From the IMG/VR virus record IMGVR_UViG_2841629896_000001: 55,441 nt of DNA; one strand, written 5' to 3'. A program made the position numbers and the translations under genes. Numbering within the stretch: position 1 is the first letter of the stretch; each line of letters opens with the position of its first letter. Shown in pieces: positions 8,668 to 30,383 of this stretch. Source of the DNA: an uncultured virus (IMG/VR IMGVR_UViG_2841629896_000001) (Duplodnaviria > Heunggongvirae > Uroviricota > Caudoviricetes). The notes below the pieces were generated by a model. It saw only the letters and a program-made list of their open reading frames with translations, did not search any database and had not been told where the DNA came from.

Positions 8668-8680
8668 ATAGAGGGTATAA

Positions 8681-8757
8681 GTGAAAAGAAACAAGAGGGG
8701 ACGCCCTAAAATCATAGGGCAAATAAGAGAAGCCAATGGTCGTATATCACGTGCAAA
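8681..8757 (+). pseudogene. 5' part of the split prophage gene; continues at 29886
   Basis: GAGGG RBS and GTG at 8681; reads MKRNKRGRPKIIGQIREANGRISRA; in frame with 29886-30383 across the 12-bp repeat. Confidence 0.85.
8746..8757 (+). repeat. att core, left junction (ATCACGTGCAAA)
   Basis: Exact match to 29885-29896. Confidence 0.85.
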
Positions 8758-10149
8758 TCCGTATCATATCAAAAAACACAATAAAGTCAATATGTTGATT
8801 GCAATTATTTTATATGAATCCACTTAAGAATCCATCTTTTTATGCATGATTCATTTGACCATTTTTTATATAAGATTGCCATGTATGAATAGACCATAAA
8901 AAGCAAATCATGGTGCAAATATTATAACGCATGTAAACATTCAAATGAAATGAAAAGCAGATATCATTCATAACAGTTCATAAATTTTATGATACGTTTT
9001 TATCACAGCACAAATCACATTGTTTAAAATTTAGTCGTTTGGAACTATCGATAACATACGTTTAAAGATCACATCTTGTTTTAAAGATTGGATTGTTAAT
9101 CGCATATTAACGTTCGCCAAAATTGGCGAGCGCAAAATAGAGAGCTGTCATAACAGCAGCATCATAATACCGAACATTTTAAAGATTGCATAAAAGGATT
9201 AAGGACAAGATCGCTTTTAAACGCTTTCTAAAAGTTTAGAAAACGATAAAGAGGTATTTTATATCTTATGAAATGAAAAGCCTTTTAATGAATAGATTGC
9301 AGACTAGTTTTTAGAACAGAACTATATTCGCTTCCATAAAAAAATGGAGGCGCATAATGCCATAGAAGTAGAATACTATATACCTTAGACATGGTATAAA
9401 AAACGTTTTAAAAGTTATCGTTTTAAAATATGAAACCAAATGAGATCTCCTCAAATTTGAGGGCATCTATTTTAGACAAAGATAAGCAAGTAAAATTCAA
9501 AACCGTTGTAACATCATAAGGCACAGGATTTACTTAATTGTGCTAGCCAAATAGAGCGATTAATTTGCAAAGAAGCTTTGTTTAAAATACGCTTATTATG
9601 AAAGCCTTTCTAAATGAATGTTTAAACGTTTGAAACGGATGTTTATAATAATTTTTAAAACCTTCCATTTGATAAAAGCGGTTGTTTATTTATCTTATGA
9701 GAGCTTGTTTTAAAAACCAGCGTTTGCAAATGTAAAAAGAACGTTTTTATAAGACATTCATTTAAGATGCATTTTCTTTTGATTGAATTGATAAAGCTAC
9801 CAAACGTTTTGATTTGTTTGATAGGTTTTGATTTTAGATAATGTGTTATTTGAATTCACTCAGCTCGATTTTGAGCTTAGTATATTGAAACGTTTTAAAA
9901 GAAGCATTGTGATCATGGGCTTTGTTTTAAAAACCCCCCTCACAAAGGAGGGTGTTATGATTAATACGTTTGAGAGTAACAAAAAGCGCTTATAGGCTCT
10001 CTCATTCAAGTGAGTGATTAAAGATCATATACATCATTTACGTTCCTTTTGATAAGTTTTCATATCTCTAATAGAGCGCTTGTAATAGATATGTTTTGTA
10101 TATATGTGTCATTACCTTGATTAGGGTTGATTCATAAGGATAGACATTA

Positions 10150-10186
10150 GAAAGCCGCGTCATATCAGTTGGCACGGCTTTCTTTT
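10150..10186. terminator. Hairpin terminator at the end of the minus-strand LbetaH array
   Basis: GAAAGCCGCGTCA-tatcagt-TGGCACGGCTTTC followed by TTTT; related to the 7675-7710 hairpin. Confidence 0.6.
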
Positions 10187-10246
10187 ATGAATTCTCTCTT
10201 TTATGATGGGTTTATAGCCATAAAGAAGGCACCCCCATACCTATTT

Positions 10247-11026
10247 TTATTCTGTTTTATCAATAATCTTAACGACATTATCGCTTTGATAAACCTCATA
10301 ATTTTTAGGAACTAACTTTGCTTTGCTTTTTGTGTTGATTGTTGCATTGCCATAAGCACGCCCCCAGATCGTTGCACAATGTGAGATTTTTGCATTACCA
10401 TAAACAGAGCCATAAATCTCACAAGAGCCCCCCACGCGCGCATTGCCATAGACCTTGCCATAAATCTTTGCACGACCATTAATCACAGCATAATTATAAA
10501 TTTTCGCATGGCTATAAATGCAAGCAGAGCCACAAACCCTAGCATGACCATAGACGCGGGCATAACTAAAAACCGTAGCATCATAAGAAACATGCGCATG
10601 GTCATAAATATGAGCATCAGCAAGAACGCGGGCAGCACCACTCACATGAGCATTGCCATAAACATTGCCATACACATGAGCACTCCCATAAACACAAGCC
10701 TGATCATAAATCTTTGCATATTGAGAGATAAAAGCCTTGCCATAGACCTCGGCATTGCCATAAACGAGACCACAGACTTGAGAATAATGCCGTATTTTTG
10801 CATCATCATAAACACGGGCATGACCATAGACACAAGCATTATCATAAACCCAGCAATTGCCATCATGAGATAGGTTGACTTCCTTTTCAATAAAACCCCC
10901 CAATGCACCCGTCTTTACATCAGCAAAATCTTTTAATGCTTTAATGCGATAAAGGCTTGTAATATTTCGAGTAAGAGCATGTTTGATTTTTTTGATTTCA
11001 CTGGTTAATTCATATTTTTTGCACAT
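10247..11026 (-). CDS. Phage LbetaH hexapeptide-repeat protein
   Basis: LYRIKALKDFADVKTGALGGFIEKEVNLSHDGNCWVYDNA plus repeats. Confidence 0.9.
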   Translation of the reverse strand: MCKKYELTSEIKKIKHALTRNITSLYRIKALKDFADVKTGALGGFIEKEVNLSHDGNCWVYDNACVYGHARVYDDAKIRHYSQVCGLVYGNAEVYGKAFISQYAKIYDQACVYGSAHVYGNVYGNAHVSGAARVLADAHIYDHAHVSYDATVFSYARVYGHARVCGSACIYSHAKIYNYAVINGRAKIYGKVYGNARVGGSCEIYGSVYGNAKISHCATIWGRAYGNATINTKSKAKLVPKNYEVYQSDNVVKIIDKTE

Positions 11027-11132
11027 AGAGATACCCTCACAATTTAATGTGTTAAACGTTTTCTAAAATTTGGAATGGAAAAATTTGGTTTGAAAGCAAG
11101 CGCCCCCACAACGCCCGCCGCTGCTTTATTGA

Positions 11133-11711
11133 TTAAACCCAGACAATTTCTAACTCGCCATAAGGAGAGAGACGTTCAGTATAGGTTTTTATTTTAGTAG
11201 ACCCGCCGACATTTTCACGAATAACAGCAATGCCATGGATATGAGCATTTTCAAAAATATGCACGTCATTTGCTATACGCGCGTTTTCATAAACCCTAGC
11301 ATTGTCATAAACATAGGCATTATCATAAATAATAGCCTTGCCATACACATGAGCATTGCCATAGACACGGGAATTATCAGAAACAACGGCATTGCCATAA
11401 ACATGCGCATTATCATAAATATAGCCAGCAGCGATAGCATTATCATAAACGCGGGCATGACCATAGATATGACCACAAGCGACAGCCTTGCCAAAAACCC
11501 TTGCGTTTTCATAAACGTGACCATTTTTAAACACAAGAGCATCATCATAAACCCAGCAATTGCCATCATGAGAGAGGTTATCTTCCTTTTCAATAAAGCC
11601 CCCCGAGGCACCCGCTTTAACATCAGAAAAGTCTTTTAATGCTTGGATACGATAAAGGGTATGATTACCAAATACACGCGTTTCATTTGTGAGTGTAAAC
11701 TTTTTTTGCAT
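11133..11711 (-). CDS. Phage LbetaH hexapeptide-repeat protein
   Basis: Same family; N-terminus like the 6844 gene, C-terminus (YTERLSPYGE) like the 6239 gene. Confidence 0.9.
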   Translation of the reverse strand: MQKKFTLTNETRVFGNHTLYRIQALKDFSDVKAGASGGFIEKEDNLSHDGNCWVYDDALVFKNGHVYENARVFGKAVACGHIYGHARVYDNAIAAGYIYDNAHVYGNAVVSDNSRVYGNAHVYGKAIIYDNAYVYDNARVYENARIANDVHIFENAHIHGIAVIRENVGGSTKIKTYTERLSPYGELEIVWV

Positions 11712-11791
11712 AACACTATTCCTTTATAAATAGATTTAAATTTTAAAATGAAATGTTTAAAGGGGGCGCCCCCGCCGCGCCCGCGCATTAT

Positions 11792-12565
11792 TTACGCAGC
11801 GTCTTTTCTAGACTGATTATCATCACAAATATCATTCGTAATTTTTTCACGGCTATTAACCACGGCATTACCATAGATTTGTACATCATGATCAATATTG
11901 GATTTACCATAGACCTTTGCATTTTCATAAATTCTTGCAAAGGAGCCCACCCGAGCCGAGCCAGAAACCTTTGCATCATCAAAAATACTTGCAAAACTCT
12001 TAATCCAAGCATTACAAAAGACATGGGCATTGCCATAAATACACGCCCCCCCATAAATGCGTGATTTACCATAAACATGGGAATTCCCATAAACAAAGCC
12101 ACTCACATGAGCATTTTCATATACACGGGCATTATCATAAATATGTGCACTAGGAGAAACATTAGCATTATCACAAACCATGGCATTGCCATAAACTAGA
12201 CCACAGATCCTAGCATTGTTACTAATTTTTGCATTGTCATAAATGCTAGCATCATGACCGAATACCCATGCCTTATCACAAACCACAGCATTCCCATAAA
12301 CTTTAGCTTCCCTAGCAATAATGGCATCATGATGTATTTTTGCATTTTCAGAAACGACGGCATTGCAAAAAACCATAGCATTATCATAGACCCAGCAATT
12401 GCCATCATGGGAGAGGTTGTTTTCATTTTCAATAAAACCGCCCAATTGACCAGCCCTAACATCATCAAAATCTCTTAAAGCACGAATGCGGTGTACAGTA
12501 ATCCCTTCAAAAGTATGATTTTCATTAGTCAATTCATATTTTTTAGATACAGTTATAGTGGACAT
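11792..12565 (-). CDS. Phage LbetaH hexapeptide-repeat protein
   Basis: HRIRALRDFDDVRAGQLGGFIENENNLSHDGNCWVYDNA plus repeats. Confidence 0.9.
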   Translation of the reverse strand: MSTITVSKKYELTNENHTFEGITVHRIRALRDFDDVRAGQLGGFIENENNLSHDGNCWVYDNAMVFCNAVVSENAKIHHDAIIAREAKVYGNAVVCDKAWVFGHDASIYDNAKISNNARICGLVYGNAMVCDNANVSPSAHIYDNARVYENAHVSGFVYGNSHVYGKSRIYGGACIYGNAHVFCNAWIKSFASIFDDAKVSGSARVGSFARIYENAKVYGKSNIDHDVQIYGNAVVNSREKITNDICDDNQSRKDAA

Positions 12566-12647
12566 AGGTAACTCCCTAAGTTTATATTTGATAAATTTTA
12601 GAATGAGATTTTTAAAGAGGGGCGCCCCCGCCGCGCCCGCGCGTTAT

Positions 12648-13379
12648 TTACGCAGCATCATTTTCATATTCGCTATCATCGTCATAATACCATTCACAAT
12701 CAGCATAATACTCATGACGGTAATAATCATCTTCACTTCCAAATTCTGGATATGCCTCATCCCAAATATGATCATCAGCAGTTAAAGAGGCGGCGCTATG
12801 AACATAAGAATCGCCAGAGATAAGAGCCCCACAAACCACGGCATCATCAAAAACACGCGAGCCATCACAAATATGAGCAGCGCCGCTTATTTTAGCATTG
12901 CCACCGACATGAGCATCATCACAAATAACGGCATCATCACAAATATGAGCATGATCAGTGACGCGGGCGTTATCATAAATTTTAGCATTACCTTCAATTA
13001 CAACGGCATTGCTAACATGAGCATTTCCATAAAGCTTTGCATTGTCCTTTAATAACATGCCTTCAAAAATAGCATTACCATAAATTCTTGCATTACCACA
13101 AACATCAACAAAAAAGCTTTTTACTTTAGCATTGCCTGAAACCCTTGCATTTTGAAAGACGCGCGCTTTGTCATAAACCCAGCAATTGCCTTTGTGAGAT
13201 AAGTTACTTTCGTTTTCAATATACCCCCCAAGATCGCCCGCTTTGACATCACCAAAATCTCTTAAAGCACGTATACGGTATAATATGAGACCAGTCACAA
13301 AATCCATTTCGCCAGTAAACTCATACTTTTTGGATATTTTTTTCTTATTAACGGGGGTAATTTTTGAGATATTTGTCAT
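12648..13379 (-). CDS. Phage LbetaH hexapeptide-repeat protein with an acidic, Tyr-rich tail
   Basis: Same N-domain; ends EDDYYRHEYYADCEWYYDDDSEYENDAA. Confidence 0.9.
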   Translation of the reverse strand: MTNISKITPVNKKKISKKYEFTGEMDFVTGLILYRIRALRDFGDVKAGDLGGYIENESNLSHKGNCWVYDKARVFQNARVSGNAKVKSFFVDVCGNARIYGNAIFEGMLLKDNAKLYGNAHVSNAVVIEGNAKIYDNARVTDHAHICDDAVICDDAHVGGNAKISGAAHICDGSRVFDDAVVCGALISGDSYVHSAASLTADDHIWDEAYPEFGSEDDYYRHEYYADCEWYYDDDSEYENDAA

Positions 13380-13428
13380 AATTAAAACCTTATGGTTATA
13401 TGTTTGTTATTGACACCCCTATAAGGGC

Positions 13429-13510
13429 GCCGGGCGCTAACAAACACGGCCATAAGTCCGTTGTCACACTTTTCTCATAAAGAGTATTGTATGGTGTGAC
13501 CACACCCGAC
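13429..13510 (-). ncRNA. C4/CI-like cloverleaf antisense RNA, copy B
   Basis: Minus strand: GTCGGGTG...CGCCCGGC; arm GTCACAC...GTGTGAC; ACGG-ACTTATGG-CCGT; GTTTGTTA. Complementary sites at 13590-13610 and 13389-13409. Confidence 0.75.
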
Positions 13511-13619
13511 AAAATCACTATATATGCTAACAAAAGCATAAAAGAAAGTCAGTTTTTATAATAGGATTAGGTTTATCGCAACCTAGTCGCTTATGGTTTA
13601 GTGTTTGTTAATCACTTAA

Positions 13620-13653
13620 TTATTTATATAACAAAATACGTATTTATTGTCAA
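13620..13653 (-). promoter_or_regulatory. Sigma70-type promoter with palindrome AAATACGTATTT in the spacer
   Basis: TTGACA on the minus strand at 13653-13648, 17 bp, then TATATA; palindrome at 13634-13645. Confidence 0.65.
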
Positions 13654-14313
13654 TTAATATTTTATCTTTTTTGATATTTTTTTGTATTTTTTTAAATACG
13701 TTGTGTATTGATAATATCTTATGCTTATGAATTGCTTCTTTTATATTTATGTGCTTTTAAAGCTATATTATGGGCTTTATAAAACGATTGCGTTATGTTT
13801 TGAATCTATACATTTATAATATTTAAAAACGCTCTCATAATGCGTATTTTTATCTTTATAACCTATCAGTTTTTTCACTAAATGAATTTAAATTTTTTTG
13901 TGAATTTTGTTTATAACGCATTTGCAACTTAACAGCTTTTTATAGGAACTGTTTTTATAACCAACGCATTCATTTGTATTATGATTATAAAACCTTGCTG
14001 TTTTTATGCATTCTTTATAACCGTTATATGCTTTACAGCCACCGCATCATTTTTCATTTTCATAAGAGAAAAGATAAATAGGATAATTGCGATTTATAGA
14101 CTGTTATGAAAACACTTATGAAAACATCTAAAGAGAGTTTGATAACTATAGAGATTAGAAAAATCCCTTTTATTGAATTTTATCAGTTCTTTTGAATGAT
14201 AACCTTATGATTTAGAGAATGATTACAACGTGCTTTATGAAAATCATGTGATCCTTTAAAGCTTTTCAAAAGATAGCTTGTAACTTATAAGAGATGCTAT
14301 CAAGATCATTAGG

Positions 14314-14508
14314 TTATGAGTTTTGGGGGTGTTTTTTATACGTATTATTTTATTTTTTTAATTAGAAATAAAAGTTATTATATTTCAATATGTTAATGTT
14401 TTAAAGAAACAACCTATATTAAATACAACCCATAAATACAATCTATAATATATATAAAAAAGGGGTTTTGTAGGGGTTTTGGGGGGTTTAAGAACCTACA
14501 AAACCTAT
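14314..14508 (+). repeat. ~195-bp inverted repeat, left copy
   Basis: Reverse complement of 20031-20224 with scattered substitutions; contains iterated GGGGTTTT motifs. Confidence 0.92.
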
Positions 14509-14566
14509 AAGTAAAATGAATATACATAACTCTCTTTAAACAAAGCTTTTGAAAACAATAAAGCAC

Positions 14567-14707
14567 TCATTTTAGATTACGGTATAACCTCTTAAAGGCA
14601 ATGTAAAAAAATCTAACTCTATTTAAGATGGGATTTCTTAAAAATCTTAAAGCAATCCAAATGAGAGTATCTAAAAGTGCAAATGATTTCTTTTTAGAAT
14701 AACGCAT
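14567..14707 (-). CDS. Small basic/hydrophobic peptide (46 aa)
   Basis: AAGGAG RBS ahead of ATG at 14707; MRYSKKKSFALLDTLIWIALRFLRNPIL... Confidence 0.4.
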   Translation of the reverse strand: MRYSKKKSFALLDTLIWIALRFLRNPILNRVRFFYIAFKRLYRNLK

Positions 14708-14827
14708 ATAAACACTCCTTTTAAAGATTAGATGTAATAAACTTAACAAAAGAGGTATAGATTATGGTTATAAGCTCTATACCCCTTATGCGTTTATCAT
14801 AACCATTATGTGAGCATGCTTTATAAG

Positions 14828-17800
14828 TTATTCAGTTTCTCTTAATACCAGATTTGGTAAGTTTTTTACGATTTTCATTGTTTCTAAACTTACAGTAATA
14901 ACCCTTTGAAATAATTCTAAAGGGTAGGCAGGGTTGCCAACGGTTTCAACAGCATAGCGATTGGCATCATTGACAATGCCGCTCTTTTTATCAGTCTTAA
15001 CACATTGACGCCCCATAACCCATTCAAGAGCAGGCTTGCCGTTGACGATATACTCATAAGCTTCAAGAGGGATATCTGTTATGGTAATATTGCTATTATA
15101 GATAACCGTTGATTTATCCTTTTCCTTACTATTCTTAATTTTTGCGAATTTCATTTCAGTTACATAATAGAATTTTTCGGGATTAGAGATGTCAGTTAAT
15201 TTTGGATTACCCTTTTTAAAGGTTACTGGATAAGGCTCTACATCTTCATAATTCACGTGCAAATGACCCAGTTCACGCCCTGCTGTTACAAATTTCCAAA
15301 AATCTTCAGCACTCTTTACACAAGGGATACGAGGTAATTCTTTAGAGAGGTTATCAGCATAACGGGCACGATAATCTTCCGAATGCAAAATTCCATAAAC
15401 GTAATAGAATAGATCATCCTTAGAGATTTTTTCATTAGGATAAGCTGCTTTAAAATGTGCTAATCCCGCATCTGTAATGCCATCACGAACTTTCTTTTTT
15501 ACACTTGCAGCAAATAAACTCTGGTTATGATGTTTTTTTTCATCAGAATATAATAAAAGTGGATAGCATCTCGTTTTTTCCAATGTATCAAAACTGATTG
15601 GCTTATTTGTCATAAGACAAGAAAATCCTGATCGATTTCCTATTCCAGAAACACAAATTCCAAGGTTGCCAAGAATATTTGAGTTAAAAAATTGATGCGT
15701 GTGTCCTAGACCTTCATTTAAGAATGGTGATGTATAATGCCATAGTGTCATAAACGGGCGATAAAGAATGAGAGCTTTTAGATGAGATTCAAATGTTGCT
15801 TCTATGCTCCGTTTTAATTTGGAGATAAGAGCATCCGTCCAACTGATTTTTGTAGTATCATAATCAATGATTTTTTTCATAGATATAGACGGATTTTCAG
15901 CAACGAGACGCCTTTGTTCATTAAAAAAATCAATTGCCTTTTGCACAGATGTACTTAGTGCATCTGTTGAAAAATTACAAACCCAAGAATCTCTTGCTGT
16001 TCTCATACCAAGCGACACTTCCTCAAAAAGCTTAGTATCTATCGACGTATTCCTATCTCCCATAGGCATAAATTGATAAAAATTGACATCTCTTGGTTTT
16101 ATCCAGTCATGCTTTTCATTAGGAGTAATTTCAATAAATTGTTTGGAGTGTGTTATTCCTTTTATACTCTTAAATTCACGCAATTGCTTTAATTTTTCCT
16201 TTGTAGAAAGGTTATCCCCAATATCATGATAGAAAATCTTACAAGGCTGTTGTTTTTTTGGATTACGTACAAAAAGAGTTATTGATATTCCATTTTGACA
16301 TCCAGAGCCAAAGACGTTTTGTCCTTCTTTTGCCATTCTGTTCGATAATCTGTTTTTTCGAATATCTCCACGAAGATTAACGATATAAATAGAGGAATAT
16401 TCATTTTCTAAACAACTACGCATACCATCCGCAGAGATTTTATCTATCCATCCATTCCCAGAAATATAAGCGACAATACCTCCTTGTGAACTTAAGCGAT
16501 TACTTGCCCACCTAATTGCTCGAATATAGCTATCATAAAGCTTATTTCGATTCATTTTTTCTGATGATCTCGTTATATATTGTTTATAGATACTATCATC
16601 AAGCGTATCATAACGCACATTTGGATTGTTATCATTGGCATTTTTTTGCCCTACGGAATAAGGAGGGTTGCCAACAATAACTTGGATATCTGCTTCCTGC
16701 TGTTTTTTACACCGCTCTGAATTCTCAAACATATAGCGTGTAAAAAAATCTTTTTCCTCTAACATCAGAAACGTATCAGTTAAACAAATTCCTTCAAAGG
16801 GTATATAATCTCCTTTCATAAGACTATGATAAGTCGATTCAATGTTAATGGCTGCTATGTAATAGGCTAGGAGAACAATCTCGTTGGCTTTGATTTCATT
16901 TCGGAACTTATATTCCATATCCTCTGGTTTTATCAGTCCAGATTGTAAAAGCCTTGTAATAAAGGTTCCTGTACCTGTAAAAGGGTCAAGAATAGAGACG
17001 CCTCGAGAACTTAAGCTTTGTCCAAACTCTTGCTCTAAAACATCATTGACGGAATGTAAGATAAAATCAACTATTTCAATAGGCGTATAAACAATCCCAA
17101 GCTTATCTGTTGTCTTTTTGAATGCCTTGGTAAAAAAATCTTCGTAAAGTTTGATAATAAGATTCTGTTTTGCTCGCGTCTCAATAATCTCCTCTGTATC
17201 ATCCTTTACACTTTGATAAAACTTTTCAAGATCTTTGGCTTCGTCTTTGATATTAATCTTATCAAGTTCTCTTAAGATCTTTTCCATCGCTTGCGAGATG
17301 GCGTTTTTACTCACAAACTCATTTCCATCAAACAAGGATTCAAAAATAGGTCGTGTCACAAGGTGTTGCGCCAACATCTCGAGTGCATCCTCTTGCTCGA
17401 TACTGTCATTTAAACCGTTCTTTAATTCTTTATGAAAGGCATCAAAAGCATGAAAGGCTTCACTCTTTTTATCAGCGAGTATGCTTTTAAGACGAATAAT
17501 ATGATTTTGTGCAATTGCAGCTACATTGCCAGCCCAATTTCCCCACTGATTAGGCTCCCCACATTTTTTGACAATGATGGGCTTAATAGCACGCGATAAT
17601 TCATCAACATAAAACTCGAATTCTTTTTGTCCTTCATAGCTATGAGAATTTTCACTTGCTACTGAACCAATATGAAGCCCAGCACCTTCCGATTTCGTAT
17701 GGAAAGAGAGTTCGTCAACAACTGCGGTCATTGCTTGTAAAGCAGGGTCAAAAGTGACTCCTACAATCTCAAACACATGACGAACATTTTGGTCTAGCTC

Positions 17801-21295: not shown

Positions 21296-21436
21296 CTAAA
21301 TGGTGTGCAAAGCGATCATGCAATCATATTCTCGCAATATTAGAAAAGTAATAATTTATCATTACTTACTGATATAGAGTGCAGTATTTAAAAAAATAAT
21401 TTGCTTCAATTACCAAATAAATAAAAATACAGTTGA

Positions 21437-22475: not shown

Positions 22476-22572
22476 TTTAAATCCTATAACGTTGCGTCAC
22501 AGGACGGATTGTGCACTCTCTAGATTGATGAGTTTGAGAAAGCCTTGTCCGTCCTTACGTGACAAGGTTTTT

Positions 22573-22773
22573 TTATGCCACGTCGTTATAACGTTGCTGT
22601 TTTGCTTGTTCGATTACATTCAAAAGATCCGATTGTAACCAACGGGATAAAAAACCAAATTTTAAAGGTTTTGGGAGAGAGCCATTGGTAACATGACGGC
22701 GGAATGTTGAGACACTCATATGAAGCAATTTTGCACTTTCACGGTCTGTTAAAAGAATATCATTTTCTGTCAT
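22573..22773 (-). CDS. AlpA/excisionase-like HTH protein
   Basis: LLTDRESAKLLHMSVSTFRRHVTNGSLPKPLKFG..SRW. Confidence 0.9.
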   Translation of the reverse strand: MTENDILLTDRESAKLLHMSVSTFRRHVTNGSLPKPLKFGFLSRWLQSDLLNVIEQAKQQRYNDVA

Positions 22774-22982
22774 TCTAAAAACCTTTTATTTTCAAAAAAT
22801 GGAAACAAATCATGCCCATTTATTAAGCACATTTTGGTTTATTTTTGAAGGTATTTTATTTATAGAAAACAATATATTATCATATAATTTCTGATGTGAT
22901 AATTTATGCGTCTTATTGAGAGAGAATGAGAAAACAGAGAGAGAAAGTTATTCACAGATCATGGGGTTATGCACCCCATATC

Positions 22983-24149
22983 TTAAGATTGCCCAGTGAC
23001 ATAAGCCGCCCATTTATCCATATAGACACGGCGCTGTTCTAGATAGTCCGTACGACGATAGGCACGCTCTACTTTACCGCCTACCGTATGACTTAGAATA
23101 GTTTCAGCGACCTCATAGGGGGCATCGGTTGTTTCAGCGAGCCAATCGCGTAAACTAGAACGAAAGCCATGCGGGCAGGCGTTTAGTCCAGTTTTTTGCA
23201 TATACCTTGCCATATTACTTTCACCAAGAGGAGCACGACCGGTTGCAGAAAGGATAAAATCACTTTTGGAAAGACAGCGAGCATGTTCAATCACTTTCAT
23301 TGCTTCTGTTGATAAAGGTACGCGAAATTCTGTTGTAGCATCGCGCTTTCCTTTCATATTTTCAGCAGGGATTGTCCATATATTTCCATCAACCTGATCC
23401 TTATGAATATAACGTAAGGAATGCGTACGAACGCCTGTCAAGATGAGCAAACGCAAAGCCAGTTGTGTTATAGCTGTTGTTTGGCAAAGTGTTTTATAAA
23501 AAGCGGGTATATCTCTCCAATCCATTGCTGGTCTATTAGTGATTTTATGACGTTGTTTACCTAAAAGAGCACGTGCTTTTTCGGTTGCTTGTAAGTCAAC
23601 ATCTAAACCTAGTGCAGCCGCATGTTTGAGACAAAGTTTGAGACGCATCAATGCTGTCCGAGCAGCTCCAGCTTTTGTATGCCAAATAGGGGCAAGGGTA
23701 TCGCGTATCTCTGTTTGCGTAATTTCTGAAACGGGTAAACAACCTAATTTGGGGAGAATATGAAGTTGTAAAGGCGAAAACCAATCTCCATTTTTACCCT
23801 CTCCTTTTAATTCAGCTTTACGAGTTTCAAAAGTGTCTAAAGCAATATCTTTTAAATAATGGAGATTACTTATTGCCTCACGCTTTTGTTTATTGCGCTC
23901 TTTAATGGGGTCACGCCCCTCATGCAAAACAGAACGCCATTGGTTTGCCAATTCACGTGCTTTTTTTAAAGAAACATGTCTTAAAGCACCCAATCCCATT
24001 TCACGACGGCGCCCGTGAAGGGTATACCGTAAAATCCATTGAGCACCTCCATCTTTACGCTTATGAAGTAACAAGCCGGCACCATCATTATATTTGCCAG
24101 CCCCCAATGTTGCGACAGATCTTGCATTCAGACGGTTCATAAGAGCCAT
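22983..24149 (-). CDS. int: P4-like tyrosine integrase, copy 1
   Basis: Arm-binding N-domain (YNDGAGLLL, RRREMGLG); catalytic LTGVR, HGFRSS, ILSH, AYRR. Confidence 0.95.
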   Translation of the reverse strand: MALMNRLNARSVATLGAGKYNDGAGLLLHKRKDGGAQWILRYTLHGRRREMGLGALRHVSLKKARELANQWRSVLHEGRDPIKERNKQKREAISNLHYLKDIALDTFETRKAELKGEGKNGDWFSPLQLHILPKLGCLPVSEITQTEIRDTLAPIWHTKAGAARTALMRLKLCLKHAAALGLDVDLQATEKARALLGKQRHKITNRPAMDWRDIPAFYKTLCQTTAITQLALRLLILTGVRTHSLRYIHKDQVDGNIWTIPAENMKGKRDATTEFRVPLSTEAMKVIEHARCLSKSDFILSATGRAPLGESNMARYMQKTGLNACPHGFRSSLRDWLAETTDAPYEVAETILSHTVGGKVERAYRRTDYLEQRRVYMDKWAAYVTGQS

Positions 24150-24324
24150 TTTTAATCCTTTCTTATACAAATTTTATCCACACACTCATCCCACTTGTTA
24201 TGTGCAAATGAGTGGTTTTGATTGATGCAACATAAACAGATTTGAAATGAGAGAATCTTACGTTATTCGAGACTCTCATTCAACATACAAAACAGTGAAT
24301 TATCATTATAAATCAGTGTGTTGA

Positions 24325-27300
24325 TCACTCATATCGGGGGGCAAAGGTGTTGCCATTGATTCAGGAAACAACACGGAAATTGTAGCCTCGATACTCACAG
24401 CCGGCAAGATAGGGGAGACTTCAGGAGCAAAAACGCCAGAAGACCAAGCAAAAGCCGATATTACCATTCACTCTGGTGGCAATATTCTCATCAAAGGGGC
24501 GCAAGAAAAGTATGATCAGCAAGCACAATCGTCAGAAAGTGGCTTTTTGAGTAGCAAATCTTCCGATACATCTGAATCGCATAGCACAACGGTTTCCTCC
24601 ATTCTTGGGGCGACGGGCAATATTGTGTTAGACGCACAAGGGGATGCCACAATCACGGCTTCTCATATGATTGCCAATGAAGATATCAATGTGGCAGCAG
24701 AAAATGTAACGATTAATGGCATGACAGACCATCATAAGAGCCATTCAGAAACCCATGAAACCGGTTTTGGTGTGGGATCAGGCAAGGGCTTTGTCTCAAT
24801 CTACGGGAGTGAGGGAAAGACAGAGAATGAAGAAAGTTTTGAACATCAAGGCTCTTCGTTCAATGGGAAAAATATCACCATCACCGCCAAAAAAGACGAT
24901 GTGAACGTGGTCGGCTCTGATTTTAATGCACGAGAAAATATTAATGTTTCGGCAGCCCATGATATCAATGTTTTGCCTGGTCACAATAGCCATAGCGCAA
25001 ATTCAAAGGAAGAACGCACAGGCTTTGGGATTCAGTTTGAAAAGAACAAAAGTGGTGCTTCTGTGGGTGTTGGGGTTGAGAGCAATAAAGATACGGGCGA
25101 TCAATGGGAAAAGACGAATACGCCGTCCAATTTCCATGCGGGCAATGATGCGAATTTTAATGCGGGCAATGATGCGAATTTTCAAGCGGCAAATGTTTCG
25201 GCAAATCGTGATGTCAACATTAATGCTGGCAATAATATCACCCTATCGGAAAGCTATGATACCTCTCATGCACAAGAAAAGCATGAAAAGTTCTTTGCTG
25301 GTGTGACAGGTTCTGTCAATGTTGGCATTCTTGGTACTGTACAAGATATAAGGGATGCCGGAAAACGTTTTGGTCATGGGGATACAAAACACAAAATCGG
25401 CAATGGTTTGCTTGGCGGTTTAAAAGGTTATGATCTCTATAACAAAGGCAAAGGTCTTTACAATGGGATAAAGGGTGGAGCAAGCAAAAGTGACCTTCGT
25501 AATATGGCGGATGTTTCAGCCAGCATTACGGCAGGCTTTAAGGCTGAAAAGGCAGAAGCCTCTTCTCAAGTTTCCACCGCGGTGACCACAACAATAGAAG
25601 GTGGGCGTTCTATCAACATGCATGCCCACAATGGGAGTATTCATGGTGTTGGTGCTGATCTTATCGCTGGCACAAACCCTCTGAGCAATGATGAACAGAG
25701 CGGAAATATCACCTTGGATGCAAAAGAACATATCCTCTTTGAAAGTGCGCAAAACACGCAAAGCACGCAAAACCATTCGCAAAATATTTCTGCAAATGTT
25801 GGTTACAGCTACGGGAGTGGCGGTCCAGGCTGGATGGGCAATGCTTCTTTTGGAAAAGGAAAGGGTTCCAGTGAACAAGTGCATCATAAAAACAGCCATA
25901 TTATAGGCACCGGCACTGTTCATACCAACAGTGGGGGAAATACTACATTAGCAGGCGCTGTAGTTTCTGGAAACCGTGTAGAGATGGGGGTTGGTGGTGA
26001 TTTCACCATTACCAGCCTCAGTGATACGGGACAAAGTTCCAGCAAGCAAAACTCTGTTTCTGTTGGCTTTAATGGTGGAAAAAAGGATGATGTGGCGACA
26101 ACCAATATTGCCTTTAACAAGGATAAAACCTCTAGTGATTATCACAGCGTTGTGGAACAATCCGGCATTAAAACCGGTGATGGCGGCTTTGATATTACAG
26201 TGGCGGGTGCAACAACCATGACCGGAGGTATTATCGGTAGCACCGCACCGGCGAACAAAAATAAACTGACCACAGGAACCATTAAAACGAGTGATATCAC
26301 CAACAGTGCTGGTGCTCAAGCCAACAGCGATGGGATCAGCATTTCTGCGGGTGGACCCATGTACCAAGGCAAATACGGCGTTGGGAAAAACATTGCCAAG
26401 AATGTTTTAGATCATGTAAAAGCCAAAGATTCAGAGGAAGGCTATACCAAATCCGCCATTAGTGATAGCACCATTGTGCTGACAAATGAAGCAGGGCAAA
26501 AGGCGTTGACGGGGCAAGATGTGGAACAAGCCATCGCCTCCCTTAACCGTGATACTGCCAACGCCCATAAGGGTGTACAACAGCTTGATGTTGCCAAGCT
26601 GGAACAAATCGTCCATGAAAACCGTGAAATGGCAATACAATTGCTGGAAGAAGGGTTTAAATACAGCGATGACTCCTATAGAACCATGTTTATCAAAGAA
26701 CACCCCATCGCTGTGGTCGACCGTGATGAAAAGGGCAATATAATCTATGAAATAGATGCAAATGGACAGTATATCAAAGACGCTCGAGGACAAAAAATTC
26801 CTAAGTTTCATTATTTAACGGATGAAGAAAAGCAGCATTTGCAAGAAGGCTCTGATGGCAAGGTTCATGTGTCCCTCAATGGCATCTTTACTCCACCCTA
26901 TGAGGCTGCTGTTTATGCAGAGCAACATGCGGAGAATAAAAATGAACCACTTTATTTTGTTGTGTTCCCCCAAGCCGATTCTGCTATTTCAGAACTTCTG
27001 GTCGCAGGATACCAGAAGTTTCTGGAAAATAACTTTTGGGGTTTGACGAATTCTACACAAGAAGCAAAAGATCTGATGTTTCGCTATGGTAATACAGGAT
27101 TGCATTTTGATGCCCATAGTCGTGGCAGTATGACAAGCTTTAATGCGCTGAATTCTTTCAAACAAGAAGGTATCAATGATGTAGCTGGCAATACAACGAT
27201 CAATTTCTATGGACCAGCGGCTAATGTTTTGGCTGCATCCGGTCTGTTAAGGTATGTAAGTGGTGGCAAGCAGACCACGATTGGCTTTGATGGTCATAGA

Positions 27301-27513
27301 TACGATTTTGTCAGCAGAATTATTGGCGGCAATGACTATACCTATGAGACAATACCTGCTGGTAGTAACATGTGGAAAGAATGGCGGAGAATGTTCACAA
27401 ATCCCAATAGCGTTCATACTTGTCTTGGACATGCGAATGCTATGTGCAACATACTTTATGGCACATCTCATCTAGAACAATTTCCTTTAAGTAAATCAAG
27501 GAGTAAAAAATGA
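24325..27513 (+). pseudogene. fhaB: 5'-truncated filamentous haemagglutinin (FhaB/CdiA-like) with a C-terminal alpha/beta-hydrolase-like toxin domain
   Basis: Frame is open from 24325 (SLISGGKGVAIDSGNNTEIVAS...), directly at the integrase-module end. FHA-2-type repeats; C-terminal NGIFT, AHSRG, FYGPAAN, DFVS, VHTC. No signal peptide or TPS domain. Confidence 0.85.
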
Positions 27514-27913
27514 AACAAATTCTAAAGCTATTAGGTGTGGTAGTTTTGTTTATCATAACAGGATGCCAATTTAATAAACCTCCCGTATCTTCTATAGGTG
27601 CATGGGAGAAGCCAGGAGCAGATTTTACTGAGATAGGAAAAGCCTTATTAGAATGTGGCATGCCAACACCTTATGATGCCGATCCAGAAAATCAAAATCG
27701 TAGTTTCAATCAAATGGCAACCATTGATGCTTGCATGCTTCAAGCAGGTTTCCGCTATAAATATGATGTGGGGGGGGGTGGTGTGGAAACCATAAAGCCG
27801 AAAATCTTCCGATTTGTCGACCAGGTGCTGTTGTTCCACAGAGAAGTGTCAAAAAGCGCTTAAACAGCCCTTTTTGTAAAAAGCATCCAGAGCAATATGA
27901 ATGCTATCCTTAA
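27510..27913 (+). pseudogene. Lipoprotein, putative immunity protein, frameshifted at a G9 tract
   Basis: Lipobox-like IITGC. Current frame stops at 27863; the shifted frame continues WCGNHKAENLPICRPGAVVPQRSVKKRLNSPFCKKHPEQYECYP to TAA at 27911-27913. Confidence 0.75.
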
Positions 27914-28133
27914 ATATTGTTATTTGTGGAAACTACAATCCCCACATTCATGTGTTCCCATGCTTGTGCGGGATTGTCTCCTCAACCAACAATCTCAACA
28001 CTGTATGTGAAGCAGTATAACGTAGGGAATACACTTAGTAATCCTATAACGTTGCGTCATAGGATGGGTTGTGCACTCTCTAGGATTGTGAATTTGAGAA
28101 AGCCTTGTCCGTCCTTACGTGACAAGGTTTTTT

Positions 28134-28334
28134 TTATGCTGCGTCACTTTGACGTTGCTGTTTTGCTTGTTCGATTACATTGAGAAGATCCGATTGTAAC
28201 CAACGCGATAAAAAACCAAATTTTAAAGGTTTTGGGAGAGAGCCATTGGTAACATGACGGCGGAAAGTTGAGACACTCATATGAAGCAATTGTGCACTTT
28301 CACGGTCAGTTAAAAGAATATCATTTTCAGTCAT
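28134..28334 (-). CDS. AlpA/excisionase-like HTH protein, copy 2
   Basis: Nearly identical to 22573-22773. Confidence 0.9.
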   Translation of the reverse strand: MTENDILLTDRESAQLLHMSVSTFRRHVTNGSLPKPLKFGFLSRWLQSDLLNVIEQAKQQRQSDAA

Positions 28335-28543
28335 TCTAAAATCCTTTTATTTTCAAAAAATAGAAACAAATCATGCCTATTTATTAAGCACATTTTGGTT
28401 TATTTTTGAAGGTATTTTATTTATAGAAAACAGTATATTATCATATAATTTCTGATGTGATAATTTATGAGTCTTATTGAGAGAGAATGAGAAAACAGAG
28501 AGAGAAAGTTATCCACAGATGATGGGGTAAATTACCCCATATC

Positions 28544-29710
28544 CTAAGATTGCTCAGTGACATAAGCCGCCCATTTATCCATATAGACACGGCGCTGTTC
28601 TAGATAGTCAGTACGACGATAGGCACGCTCTACTTTACCGCCTACCGTATGACTTAGAATGGTTTCAGCAACCTCATAGGGGGCATCGGTTGTTTCAGCA
28701 AGCCAATCGCGTAAACTAGAACGAAAGCCATGCGGGCAGGCATCAAGTTTATTTTTTTTCATATATTTTGACATAACATTCTCAGCAAGGGGACCTCGAC
28801 CGGAAAAAGACAGAATGAAATCACTTTTAGAGATACAACTGGCTTGTTCAATCACTTTTAGAGCTTCTAAAGATAGGGGTACGCGAAATTCTTTTGTTGT
28901 ATCACGCCTTCCTTTCATATTCTCAGCAGGAATAGTCCATATATCCCCATCAATCTGATCCTTATGAATATAACGTAAGGAATGTGTACGAACGCCTGTC
29001 AAGATGAGCAAACGCAAAGCCAGTTGTGTTATAGCTGTTATTTGGCAAAGTGTTTTATAAAAAGCGGGTATATCTCTCCAATCCATTGCTGGTCTATTAG
29101 TGATCTTATGACGTTGTTTTCCTAAAAGAGCGCGTGCTTTTTCTGTTGCTTGTAAATCAACATCCAAACCCAAAGCAGCTGCATGTTTGAGACAAAGTTT
29201 GAGACGCATCAATGCTGTCCGAGCAGCTCCAGCTTTTGTATGCCATNTAGGGGCAAGGGTATCGCGTATCTCTGTTTGCGTAATTTCTGAAACGGGTAAA
29301 CAGCCTAATTTAGGGAGAATATGAAGGCGTAAAGGTAAAAACCAAATTCCATCTTTCCCATCCCCTTTTAATTCAGCTTTATGGCTTTCAAAAGCATCCA
29401 CGGCAATATCTTTTAAATAATGGAGATTGCTTATTGTCTCACGCTTTTGTTTATCGCGTTCTTTAATGGGGTCACGCCCCTCACGTAAAACAGAACGCCA
29501 TTGATTTGCACATTCACGGGCTTTTTTTAAAGAAACATCTCGCAACGCTCCCAATCCCATTTCGCGACGACGCCCGTGAAGGGTATAACGATAAATCCAT
29601 TGAGCACCTCCATCTTTACGCTTATGAAGAAGCAAGCCGGCACCATCATTATATTTGCCAGCCCCCAATGTTGCTACAGATCTTGCATTAAGACGGTTCA
29701 TAAGGACCAT
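28544..29710 (-). CDS. int: P4-like tyrosine integrase, copy 2
   Basis: Same motifs as copy 1; open frame with one N at 29247; adjacent to the right att core. Confidence 0.95.
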   Translation of the reverse strand: MVLMNRLNARSVATLGAGKYNDGAGLLLHKRKDGGAQWIYRYTLHGRRREMGLGALRDVSLKKARECANQWRSVLREGRDPIKERDKQKRETISNLHYLKDIAVDAFESHKAELKGDGKDGIWFLPLRLHILPKLGCLPVSEITQTEIRDTLAPXWHTKAGAARTALMRLKLCLKHAAALGLDVDLQATEKARALLGKQRHKITNRPAMDWRDIPAFYKTLCQITAITQLALRLLILTGVRTHSLRYIHKDQIDGDIWTIPAENMKGRRDTTKEFRVPLSLEALKVIEQASCISKSDFILSFSGRGPLAENVMSKYMKKNKLDACPHGFRSSLRDWLAETTDAPYEVAETILSHTVGGKVERAYRRTDYLEQRRVYMDKWAAYVTEQS

Positions 29711-29884
29711 TTTTACTCCTTTCTTATACAAATTTGATCCACACACTCATCCCACTTGTTATGTGCAAATGAGTGGTTTTGATTGATACAACATACACAG
29801 ATTTGAAATGAGAGAATCCTACGTTATTCGAGACTCTCATTCAACATACAAAACAGTGAATTATCATTATAAATCAGTGTGTTG

Positions 29885-29896
29885 ATCACGTGCAAA
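29885..29896 (+). repeat. att core, right junction (ATCACGTGCAAA)
   Basis: Exact match to 8746-8757; preceded by the IHF-consensus-like AATCAG-TGTG-TTG at 29872-29884. Confidence 0.85.
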
Positions 29897-30383
29897 AGCA
29901 CCCCGTGAAGCCGTTGATCAATTGGCAATAGAAATGCGTGCAAAACGCTTCGGTTTAACCCTATACGAGGCAAAAAATCCACTTTCTGGGTCTTACATAG
30001 GGCGGCTTTGTTTGCAAGGTGTGCTTACACAAGAGCAATATGACGCCGCGCAACAGTACTTACAGATAAGAAACGATTATCTATGTGCAAAAGGCTTGCC
30101 TAATGCGATTTATGACGAAATGCCGTCATCATCTGATGATAAGGCAAGAGATAAGTGGGTAGCATTCGCAACAGAGCAGTTTATCAACATGCAAGAGGCA
30201 CTAAAAGAAGCGCAACAGCGCTATAGACAGTATAATCTTTATGCCGCGATAAATCATCTCGTTATAGAAGATCAAATGCTACCATATCGAATTCATTGCG
30301 CATTGCTCTTAATGCGCTTCAGAACTATTTTGATCAAAAAAGTAAATGGTAATTGTTTTATGTGCTTTTGCAGAATGACGTGA
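29886..30383 (+). pseudogene. 3' part of the split prophage gene (putative late regulator/antiterminator)
   Basis: SRAKAPREAVDQLAIEMRAKRFGLTLYEAKNPLSGSYIGRLCLQGVLTQEQYDAAQQY...; in frame with the GTG at 8681. Function inferred from position. Confidence 0.75.

Follow-up and report, generated by a model that had tools for sequence, protein, structure and literature searches.

The window, the whole 55,441-nucleotide stretch of DNA analyzed here (IMG/VR record IMGVR_UViG_2841629896_000001), contains a prophage gene that is split by a 21.1-kb insert (positions 8758-29884), and we consider insertional inactivation of a late-gene regulator to be the most likely explanation of this arrangement (probability roughly 0.55). 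Specifically, tyrosine-integrase recombination inserted a composite island at a 12-bp core in codons 23-26 of a gene of a P22-like Bartonella prophage, the last gene of the early/replication block, upstream of a terminator hairpin and the packaging operon. Because the island severs the promoter, the ribosome-binding site, and the conserved N-terminus from the remainder of the gene, the gene is inactivated, leaving a disrupted putative regulator in a probably grounded prophage. We are close to certain of the insertion and of the anatomy of the island, and it is quite probable that the arrangement does not function as a switch. The split gene and its flanks are made up as follows.

8224-8667, plus strand: prophage ssb, which always precedes the split gene (Pfam SSB, E 1e-32)
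8681-8757, plus strand: 5' fragment of the split gene (phrog_15385/BgtS-like), with a GTG start, 25 codons, and the conserved basic motif KRGRPKI..NGRISRA
8746-8757, plus strand: attL, 12-bp core ATCACGTGCAAA (exact repeat, comparison with L003)
29885-29896, plus strand: attR, 12-bp core ATCACGTGCAAA (exact repeat, comparison with L003)
29886-30383, plus strand: 3' fragment of the split gene (phrog_15385, E 3e-73, residues 1-136 only)
30411-30927, plus strand: RHH antitoxin (DUF6290) with its ParE toxin, after the split gene and before the terminator
31085-31100, plus strand: G+C-rich hairpin and T run resembling an intrinsic terminator, directly upstream of the packaging operon
31152-34775, plus strand: start of the late operon (phrog_11043 protein, large terminase, portal)

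The core occurs exactly twice in the window, both times on the plus strand, and none of 100 shuffles held at least two copies. The first-pass annotation had reported this repeat and an intact integrase beside its right copy, and both observations hold: a 400-aa integrase (with one N) lies 138 nt from that copy. Read directly, the two copies share one reading frame. From the GTG at 8681 the frame runs across the left copy (...G R I S R A) and continues into island DNA up to a stop at 8827, and the right copy lies in the same frame directly after a TGA (tga tca cgt gca aaa gca ...). Rejoining 77 nt (8681-8757) and 487 nt (29897-30383) gives, by arithmetic, 188 codons, i.e., 187 aa. An uninterrupted homologue was indeed found right after ssb in a sister prophage from a named B. 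queenslandensis record (L003), whose adjoining ssb protein is 100% identical to that of the window and whose DNA reads through the predicted attB junction exactly. The frame reading and the L003 junction together confirm that the gene is split and that its halves would rejoin in frame. Furthermore, both window fragments align end to end on homologues, which do not begin at 29922 but carry the KRGRP N-terminus (MKKNKKRGRPKI.GQ.RE.NGRISRAK.PREAVD). The genome of L003 (G002) holds no close relative of the integrase, the best match being 53% identical and with a stop. None of the 46 evaluable homologous loci is occupied by the island; the exact core is present at 15 of them, and 25 differ from it by at most one base.

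The restored ORF proposed earlier agrees with this reading in frame and length, whereas its tail of about 30 residues is frameshifted relative to the conserved C-terminal helix. Compared with L003 and with G192 (the only other record found to share the right junction), 4 nt are missing from the window between 30288 and 30289; this gap puts the last ~27 codons out of frame, and the alignments to both records show that the conserved helix is thereby lost. Since the gap may be a sequencing error, given the N bases of the window record and the intact, unshifted 3' half in G192, the decay argument rests on one record. The lost function might be replaced in trans by L002, a 58% identical paralogue that the same record carries, or by the chromosomal bgtS. 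No ssb or 5' fragment was found anywhere in the 97.5 kb of G192, which is a fragment, and the missing 5' half could lie beyond its end.

The N bases, together with island modules that recur several times in these genomes, might also suggest an assembly error in which repeats wrongly joined the island to the prophage. This is very improbable, however: a repeat of 12 bp could not produce such an error, core and arm meet cleanly at the left junction, and the identical right junction is present in the independent record G192, with a 100% identical integrase 2 protein and 15.6 kb of flank at 99% identity. In addition, contigs of run X1 agree perfectly with the island over long stretches.

The insert is built from two related P4-type integrase/AlpA islands (A and B), one having inserted itself into the fhaB gene carried by the other. 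Its features are the following.

8758-9400, no strand: integrase-distal (left) arm, holding no ORF of at least 60 aa
10247-13379, minus strand: four YdcK-type beta-solenoid paralogues carried as cargo (Pfam B_solenoid_ydck, E 1e-12 to 1e-19)
14828-19756, minus strand: Type ISP restriction-modification enzyme of 1642 aa, defence cargo (Pfam Type_ISP_C, E 6e-99)
20288-21238, minus strand: truncated DUF3987 (P4/PICI-type primase-helicase) gene, of which profile positions 133-363 of 364 remain
21437-21996, minus strand: ParE toxin (21437-21709; Pfam ParE_toxin, E 4e-19) and upstream antitoxin-like ORF (21706-21996)
22573-22773, minus strand: AlpA-like HTH gene of integrase module 1 (Pfam HTH_17, E 1.4e-4; 22.5 bits, below the 27-bit cut-off)
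22983-24170, minus strand: integrase 1, 395 aa (Arm-DNA-bind_3, Phage_int_M, and Phage_integrase domains)
24171-24328, no strand: integrase-proximal arm of island A, matching the arm at 29747-29884 up to ...GTGTGTTGATCAC
24329-27513, plus strand: 3' remnant of fhaB (filamentous haemagglutinin; Pfam Fil_haemagg_2, E 4e-58)
27510-28183, plus strand: two small ORFs after the fhaB remnant, 27510-27863 (phrog_21928, of unknown function) and 27917-28183 (no family found in Pfam and PHROG searches)
28134-28334, minus strand: AlpA-like HTH gene of integrase module 2, a direct duplication of module 1
28544-29746, minus strand: integrase 2, 400 aa with one N at 29247, adjoining attR and transcribed away from it

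The composite origin is shown by the direct duplication of 22480-24328 and 28040-29889 (91.7% identical), in which the two integrases are 89% identical in pairwise comparison. The two integrase arms are identical up to ...GATCAC, beyond which they diverge into fhaB: the arm of island A joins fhaB at a shared TCAC, homology to the G192 fhaB begins at 24325, and whole fhaB genes read ...GGTTCAC followed by TCATATCGGGG in G192 and similarly in G001. Island B (int2, alpA2, fhaB, and the downstream ORFs) sits at the phage gene, and island A (int1, alpA1, ParDE, the solenoid and Type ISP genes, and what is left of DUF3987) landed in the fhaB of island B at a TCAC pseudo-site, after which everything between the two left arms was presumably lost. 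From ~8770 on, the present left arm resembles those of three further island copies in G192. Both islands are of the "fha-repeat" type described in Bartonella (Berglund et al. 2009, PMC2697382), and in G192 a whole fhaB (2329 aa) and an fhaC-like gene adjoin the same int2 module and right junction, whereas the window keeps only the 3' remnant of fhaB. The passages of PMC2697382 drawn on here map no att site or target gene; in the window, the boundaries are base-exact and the target is identified. As for the cargo, the solenoid genes hold internal 18-nt periodic repeats, and the Type ISP enzyme, which has further Pfam domains (ISP_coupler, Mrr_cat_2, ResIII, and N6_Mtase) and matches PADLOC REase_MTase_IIG with E 0, is flanked by inverted repeats (14314-14508 and 20031-20224). 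The partner ORF of ParE has Arc-like PHROG matches, and the same toxin-antitoxin pair adjoins a related integrase in G001.

By its sequence, the split gene is a member of phrog_15385, a family that includes the BaGTA protein BgtS and comprises helical proteins of ~175 aa with a conserved basic KRGRP N-terminus; all 120 family members scanned match this PHROG. Over 150 aa, the 3' fragment shares 57% identity with P0342 (CAF28222.1), equated with BH14580 (bgtS) of B. henselae by numbering from brrA, brrF, and brrG. In the portions of the literature drawn on here, the function of BgtS is given as "unknown" in Table S7 (Quebatte et al. 2017, PMC5496983), and the published papers (also Korotaev et al. 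2025, 10.1101/2024.11.20.624540) assign it no known function. BgtS is encoded on the chromosome as a domesticated paralogue, with the bgtTUV lysis cassette downstream of it, whereas the window gene is a prophage version upstream of a packaging operon; the bgtS orthologue of G002 lies upstream of a phage lysozyme. G001 and G002 hold one high-identity copy each (97% and 87% to P0121) and also prophage paralogues at 55-65% identity, and in a wider sample a BgtS-type high-identity match is present in 39 of 71 genomes of the genus.

Would such a gene regulate late transcription? The first-pass annotation had placed it at the position of lambda Q, with ssb and replication genes before it and the packaging operon after it, and this reading is plausible because the gene follows ssb, lies upstream of the terminator hairpin and packaging operon, and is weakly linked to DUF6456. 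Of 57 Bartonella loci, 38 show the same hairpin pattern on the plus strand beyond the 3' end of the family gene, and in Rhizobium phages the early block ends with the homologue, which lies 1.7-2.7 kb ahead of the large terminase. Lambda Q, Q21, and BaGTA BrrG are likewise last early genes before a terminator and late operon; BrrG (BH14530, CAF28217.1) is nevertheless a gene distinct from the family member BH14580. DUF6456 is the C-terminal domain of GafZ and GafA, activators/antiterminators of alphaproteobacterial GTAs (10.1101/2023.11.12.565669; PMC9638019, as excerpted), and the models of Q21, BrrG, GafZ, and GafA share structural features, according to the parts of Korotaev et al. 2025 consulted (10.1101/2024.11.20.624540). 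The likeness to DUF6456 and GafZ noted earlier stands in moderate form. A wide family profile aligned by hhalign with 30 DUF6456 domains gave a probability of 81.4% (E 1.2e-5) over 109 columns, covering positions 7-139 of 139 and hence the whole domain, and DUF6456 clusters make up 16 of the 30 named ESM-Atlas neighbours (score 0.91, language-model search). On the other hand, a narrow Bartonella-only profile reached 1.3%, and hmmscan found no Pfam DUF6456 match at E ≤0.01 in any of 120 members and none at E ≤10 in 5 members. A DUF6456 protein ranked 11th in a viral fold library (probability 0.97, E 0.31). The predicted model matches the Q21 complex entry (6jnx chain P) only at Z 4.3, the noise level for helical proteins. 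DUF6456 matches are present in 104 of 121 genomes of the order and absent from B. grahamii G001. Like GafZ/GafA, the family consists of small helical proteins of an alphaproteobacterial phage-derived element, encoded before terminator-guarded structural genes, with the difference that, where GafZ/GafA have a GafY/DnaA-like partner, it has a basic KRGRP N-terminus. We thus lean toward a late-gene activator or antiterminator, and the family looks like a distant DUF6456 relative.

Alternatively, the island may have used a conserved phage sequence as a harmless landing site, in a gene (for example, a replication or packaging accessory) whose loss has no regulatory consequence. Pfam searches found no family for the protein and searches of solved structures nothing significant (best Foldseek E 0.39, VIA Z 5.0), a weak Terminase_4 match was seen in 1 of 120 members (E 0.0064), relatives of the integrase use many unrelated sites, fhaB included, and Bartonella genomes contain many decayed copies of such islands. 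This alternative is nonetheless doubtful. A likelier small terminase is the phrog_11043 protein (its ORF, as listed, begins at 31053 and matches the family from residue 34 on), whose small ORF overlaps the start of the large terminase (31444-32772; the P22-type portal follows at 32757-34775). Moreover, two independent methods link the split-gene family to DUF6456, its position at the early/late boundary is conserved with a conserved terminator downstream, and its conserved chromosomal paralogue bgtS appears among the BaGTA donor genes in Table S7 of PMC5496983.

The first-pass annotation had gone further and proposed a possible DNA-rearrangement switch. In a working switch of this kind ("regulated gene integrity"), the island would block late transcription of the helper until integrase and AlpA excise it, restoring the gene and coupling island mobilization to late expression of the phage. 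Excision appears mechanically possible: the 12-bp cores are perfect and in one frame, both integrases are full length and each is accompanied by an AlpA-like gene, and precise excision would rejoin the gene halves in frame. The int-alpA-primase core resembles that of P4/PICI satellites, and the 3' half of the gene is unshifted in G192. However, the 3' half in the window is frameshifted and nothing suggests regulated excision, and we therefore favor an insertionally inactivated regulator over a working switch, which is improbable. Against the switch also stand G192, without the 5' half, the 0 of 46 other loci occupied despite a common core, the truncated primase-helicase gene, the composite make-up of the island, the orientation of its genes against phage transcription, and the other sites in phage DNA at which related integrases lie; Pfam and PHROG profile searches found no packaging or capsid-redirecting gene in the island. 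In addition, ParDE and the restriction-modification gene would penalize loss of the island. What stands of the earlier interpretation is the integrase-bounded insertion, the in-frame rejoining, and the position of the gene, together with its fallback that the prophage was simply disarmed, an ordinary gene disruption of a kind already described. The skin, phi10403S-comK, and nifD-type elements ("active lysogeny") similarly interrupt a coding sequence that precise excision rejoins in frame. In those systems the gene belongs to the host, occupancy is conserved, and excision is developmentally timed, whereas in the window the gene is part of another mobile element, the site is rarely occupied, and a second lesion is present.

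The closest precedent for a satellite that gates its helper is already in print as the HE-PICIs, which reside inside genes of their helper prophages (Tommasini, Mageeney and Williams 2023, PMC10111431, in the passages drawn on here). Shared with them are an integrase-plus-AlpA island with a primase gene inside a prophage gene, an attP without replacement sequence that leaves the gene broken until excision, and integrases whose relatives repeatedly target prophage genes, with some off-target sites, which recalls HE-PICI late-gene tropism. In Figure 3 of PMC10111431, the key genes share the direction of the target, whereas those of the window island oppose phage transcription, and the nine late targets named there after lambda cognates contrast with a putative early/late-boundary regulator here, with ssb as the target of relatives. 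The window element showed no captured late genes or Bro-N genes; it has a truncated primase-helicase gene, carries defence, toxin-antitoxin, and fhaB genes, and is a composite of two islands. Related integrases lie at ssb codon ~64 in four loci (L007, L011, L020, and L030), and also at ssb ~125 (L019), at the end of ssb (L039), and in another phage ORF (G001). The integrase family has 97 matches in G001 and 71 in G002, and almost all among the matches listed carry stop codons.

At each broken end of the interrupted prophage gene lies a 12-mer, ATCACGTGCAAA; the 55,441-base window has only two copies of it (8746-8757 and 29885-29896), and none of 100 shuffles contained two. The left copy is read through by a frame opening at GTG 8681, with AGAGGG 5′ of the GTG, and the right copy lies in the same frame. 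There is no replacement sequence: the left fragment runs into island DNA and a TGA stands immediately before the right core. By arithmetic, 8681-8757 and 29897-30383 together make 187 codons and a stop. A search with the 3′ fragment returned 216 proteins of 90-289 aa (all names among the 120 matches listed are Bartonella), and the aligned homologues begin MKKNKKRGRPKI.GQ.RE.NGRISRAK.PREAVD, from which it follows that the two fragments abut, with no gap or overlap beyond the repeat. The same 117-kb record holds an uninterrupted paralogue directly 3′ of an ssb gene. No tRNA genes were found in the window, so that there is no tRNA target.

We compared 57 related loci from species-representative genomes. 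One of them, L003 of B. queenslandensis strain BqUM, encodes an ssb protein 100% identical to that of the window, followed by a 5′ gene part that is also 100% identical and contiguous with the 3′ part, and its DNA reads through the exact junction predicted for excision; the flanks are 96-97% identical. Since the closest integrase relative in that genome is only 53% identical and contains a stop, we conclude from this empty site and these identities that the insertion is real and recent at the species scale. The first-pass annotation had proposed the in-frame rejoining across the 12-mer and suggested a search for uninterrupted homologues after ssb; the rejoining holds, and such homologues are present in L003 and in the same-record paralogue. 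Of the 57 loci, 46 could be judged, after L034 (offset match), L035 (N run over the site) and L038 and L052-L059 (gene start off the contig) were dropped. The window's own site is occupied in 0 of these 46, the exact 12-mer being present in 15 and a site differing by at most one base in 25. At L035, in another named B. queenslandensis record, the N run (3674-3999) covers just that portion of the family gene into which the window's island is inserted, and the locus can therefore be scored neither as empty nor as occupied. One further provirus record, G192, has the right junction only.

Within the insert, two integrase modules bracket an fhaB remnant, as the following list indicates.

Features of the island (8758-29884)
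10247-13379, minus strand: four YdcK-type beta-solenoid genes
14314-14508 and 20031-20224: two inverted repeats, each about 190 nt long, on either side of the Type ISP gene
14828-19756, minus strand: Type ISP restriction-modification enzyme, 1642 aa
20288-21238, minus strand: DUF3987 primase-helicase gene that has lost its first third (profile positions 133-363 of 364 kept)
21437-21996, minus strand: ParE and an antitoxin-like partner
22573-22773, minus strand: AlpA-like HTH gene of module 1
22983-24170, minus strand: integrase 1
24329-27513, plus strand: 3′ remnant of fhaB, 988 aa
27510-28183, plus strand: two small ORFs
28134-28334, minus strand: AlpA-like HTH gene of module 2
28544-29746, minus strand: integrase 2

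Both integrases carry Arm-DNA-bind_3, Phage_int_M and Phage_integrase, that is, an arm-binding N-domain and a catalytic domain, and integrase 2, encoded at one end of the island, starts 138 nt from the right core. The two proteins are 89% identical and their surroundings (22480-24328 and 28040-29889) 91.7% identical; the DNA 5′ of each matches up to ...GTGTGTTGATCAC, after which one continues into the phage gene and the other into fhaB. The origin of this arrangement is indicated by G192, which a search with 32 nt of the right arm brought up (in the metagenome scan, a 32-nt piece of this arm had 0 matches) and which has an integrase 2 100% identical in protein, the same right junction and a 15.6-kb late region 99% identical to that of the window. 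Beside integrase 2, its fhaB is whole (2329 aa) and accompanied by an fhaC-like gene, and it reads ...CCGGTTCAC followed by TCATATCGGGG at the exact point where the window's integrase 1 arm reads ...GTTGATCAC followed by TCATATCGGGG. Because the fhaB of G192 is whole and the B. grahamii fhaB copies agree with it at this junction, we conclude that the island of module 1 entered the fhaB of the island of module 2 at a TCAC pseudo-site. Only TCAC is common to both sides of the junction, and no copy of the 12-mer with up to two mismatches, as a second att core for integrase 1, was found near 24.3 kb. After this landing, the part of the recipient island between the two left arms was presumably lost. 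The element is a composite integrative island.

This composite history fits the heavy load of decayed integrase copies in the genus: the island integrase family has 97 matches in B. grahamii (genome G001) and 71 in B. queenslandensis (genome G002), and stop codons in almost all of the matches listed indicate that dead copies abound in these genomes. The integrase-proximal arm (...attatcattataaatca...) is kept in nine other loci, in which the flanks beyond it differ.

DNA flanking the conserved integrase-proximal arm
ssb codon ~64: L007, L011, L020, L030
ssb residue ~125: L019
last ssb codons: L039
other DNA: L034, L037, L057 and a second place in L011
another phage ORF: G001

Prophage ssb and the gene beside it are thus recurrent targets for relatives of the island integrases. 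For the integrase/fha islands so abundant in Bartonella genomes, the window defines the att site to the base and shows how one island came to be nested in another. In G001, an integrase, alpA, antitoxin, ParE and DUF3987 remnant make up the same module as in the island, and G192 holds at least three more island copies.

Several smaller features of the island may be recorded here. The inverted repeats flanking the Type ISP gene are 88-92% complementary, an arrangement that suggests a cassette moving or inverting as a unit; in G192, pieces of the Type ISP gene lie in three places and in both orientations. Besides the four beta-solenoid genes of the island, the prophage has two (6239-7647, plus strand). 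An element of about 130-160 nt lies 5′ of the beta-solenoid genes (13388-13557) and is repeated at several other places in the 117-kb record; its Rfam match to sRNA-Xcc1 is below threshold (40.7 bits against a cut-off of 53), and the Rfam scan of 7500-31500 gave two sub-threshold matches only. Between the AlpA-like gene of module 1 and the ParE pair, a 49-aa ORF (22326-22475, minus strand) has a Cys/His-rich motif that resembles, by eye, the zinc-binding part of P4-type primases; it matched no Pfam family. Finally, one contig in each of the runs X1 and X7 joins 8934, in the left arm of the island, to 24132, at the 5′ end of the integrase region, with 37 other letters between, which reads as a miniature island derivative lacking about 15 kb of the interior.

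The 3′ fragment of the split gene matches phrog_15385 (E 3e-73, profile positions 24-159 of 181), and the 5′ fragment aligns to the N-terminus of the same phrog_15385/BgtS family; no Pfam family matched the gene. In a wider set, drawn from 462 representatives at E ≤0.001 among 1.84 billion proteins, all 120 members scanned match phrog_15385, whose function is unknown, and Pfam added a single weak Terminase_4 match. Direct matches to DUF6456 (PF20057) were found in 0 of these 120 at E ≤0.01, in 0 of 5 family members at E ≤10 and nowhere in the window's record. An AlphaFold2 model built with 39 Bartonella sequences is all-helical from residue 27 (mean pLDDT 76.8, pTM 0.63). Neither hmmsearch against solved structures (best E 0.097) nor Foldseek against the PDB at E ≤0.001 (best E 0.39) gave a significant match, and the best hit of the wide VIA structure search, Z 5.0, is at noise level. 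The same applies to sigma region 4 and the Q21 complex (VIA scores of Z 4.0-4.7), which correspond to two of the comparisons suggested by the first-pass annotation; the Q21-type chain P of 6jnx (Z 4.3, rmsd 3.7 over 88 residues) ranks 17th among unrelated helical proteins. In the viral fold library BFVD, the top hits are uncharacterised phage proteins (best E 2.5e-4, TM 0.60), with a DUF6456 protein at rank 11 (E 0.31).

Profile comparison gave a mixed picture for DUF6456. Against a DUF6456 alignment built from 30 genomes of the order, hhalign placed the wide family profile at a probability of 81.4% (E 1.2e-5, 109 columns, positions 7-139 of 139) and the narrow Bartonella-only profile at 1.3%. 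In the ESM Atlas, DUF6456 clusters account for 16 of 30 named neighbours (score 0.91, 196 of 256 features in common). A search for the domain across the order gave one match in 104 of 121 genomes and none in B. grahamii G001. GafZ itself probably carries PF20057, in line with a control match in Caulobacter. Homologues of GafA are annotated as DUF6456 proteins in the text of PMC9638019, and GafZ is reported as an antiterminator in bioRxiv 10.1101/2023.11.12.565669.

The position of the gene agrees with such a role. A tblastn search of the phage collection found the family in five records, all Rhizobium phages, and in two of them the homologue closes a tightly packed early block, with the large terminase 1.7-2.7 kb downstream. 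In the window, an RHH/ParE pair (30411-30927, DUF6290 RHH antitoxin and ParE) directly follows the split gene, and after it come a G+C hairpin of six pairs and its T run (31085-31100) and then a phrog_11043 protein, the large terminase, a P22-type portal and capsid genes. In 38 of the 57 Bartonella loci, a hairpin of the same pattern follows the family gene on the plus strand. Split gene, hairpin and late operon together form the layout that would be expected for antitermination control. Most likely, the split gene encodes a GafZ/BgtS-like late activator of the prophage. The first-pass annotation's assignment of the gene to the Q position is thus plausible and agrees with the boundary layout, the hairpin and the Rhizobium phages. 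The RHH/ParE pair, the second toxin-antitoxin pair of the window, is a moron lodged between that gene and the terminator of the late operon; at L002, the paralogous locus of the same record, two small ORFs (60 and 140 aa) occupy the same place on the opposite strand.

The family also has a chromosomal branch. G001 and G002 each contain one high-identity copy (97% and 87% to P0121), next to prophage paralogues at 55-65%, and in the genus sample 39 of 71 genomes have a match at E ≤1e-70. CAF28222.1 (P0342), the family member in B. henselae, is 57% identical over 150 aa to the window's 3′ fragment. The supplement of PMC5496983 lists brrA as BH14470 (CAF28211.1), brrF as BH14520 (CAF28216.1), brrG as BH14530 (CAF28217.1) and bgtS as BH14580, a 199-aa protein of unknown function. 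Since the numbering is consecutive and both entries are 199 aa long, we infer that CAF28222.1 is BH14580, i.e. bgtS. We therefore rejected the idea that the family is BrrG, the published Q21-like antiterminator; on this numbering, its chromosomal member is nevertheless a gene of BaGTA. Downstream of the bgtS orthologue in G002 come two YopJ-like genes, a 193-aa ORF and a phage lysozyme, an order that fits bgtTUV, the second lysis cassette of BaGTA. This cassette is described as controlled independently of BrrG in the preprint text of Korotaev et al. (bioRxiv 10.1101/2024.11.20.624540), and the BgtS family link offers a testable idea of how that control works. The two tandem YopJ-family acetyltransferase genes (L114, 12893-15178 on contig 6 of G002) lie between the bgtS orthologue and the lysozyme of the presumed cassette. 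No large TOPRIM gene was found beside the conserved family copy in G001 or G002. The split gene thus ties a large unnamed phage family to BgtS of BaGTA, and provides a testable functional lead for it; the link to the GafZ/GafA antiterminator domain is weaker.

Given that the cores are perfect and that two int-alpA modules are full length, it is tempting to regard the island as a working switch that breaks a helper late gene until excision, one of the two readings offered by the first-pass annotation, and HE-PICIs, as described in the text of PMC10111431, provide a precedent. However, L003 and G192 both have 4 nt that are missing from the window between 30288 and 30289, and the frame of the last ~27 codons is shifted as a result. 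These codons specify the C-terminal helix conserved in the family (invariant L154, L157, L161 and L165), which hhalign aligns with the most conserved DUF6456 motif, and the rejoined frame of this record would lose it. The gap may be a sequencing error, because the record has N bases. In G192 the 3′ half is unshifted, but ssb and the 5′ fragment are absent from its 97.5 kb; G192 is itself a fragment. The absence of occupancy among the 46 loci, the truncated DUF3987 gene and the orientation of the island genes, opposite to that of the phage gene, also speak against a switch. In addition, ParDE and restriction-modification cargo would penalise loss of the island. Contigs of four runs that contain the junction (sets of about 3 million letters), compared over 8200-28199, gave fragmented multi-copy matches. 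Taken together, insertional inactivation is the best reading of the present arrangement, and a working switch is unlikely.

The island shares with HE-PICIs its location within a prophage gene without replacement sequence, but its int, alpA and DUF3987 genes are on the minus strand and face against a plus-strand target, whereas in the HE-PICI description the integrase, AlpA and primase share the direction of the late gene; moreover, the island's replication zone is not intact, DUF3987 keeping positions 133-363 of 364. With P4-type integrative islands it shares a tyrosine integrase at one end, terminal direct repeats and a relative whose site is empty. It differs from the skin, comK and nifD elements in that its occupancy is not conserved across strains or species (0/46) and in that the rejoined gene would be frameshifted by 4 nt, although a sequencing error is possible. 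Islands embedded in prophage genes are a kind of system already known, to which the window adds a member from the Alphaproteobacteria with a different target and orientation; since islands that break a helper prophage gene until excision have been described, a switch would matter little even if true. One may speculate further that the Bartonella int-alpA islands are an alphaproteobacterial counterpart of helper-embedded satellites, homing to the early/late boundary of P22-like prophages (ssb and the GafZ-like phrog_15385 gene) and holding helper late transcription hostage until excision, and that in parallel chromosomal BgtS acts on the separately controlled bgtTUV of BaGTA as its missing antiterminator or activator of the GafZ type; we consider this combined scheme improbable.

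Further downstream in the late region, 49665-54150 contains two tail-fibre-like ORFs with alanine-zipper domains, one of which carries an Mtd second domain, from the family of the Bordetella phage tropism determinant. The only N cluster of the late region (52323-52742) lies in this stretch, and the AT skew reaches very high values between 50 and 53 kb; the stretch may be a hypervariable region that binds receptors, or it may be masked.
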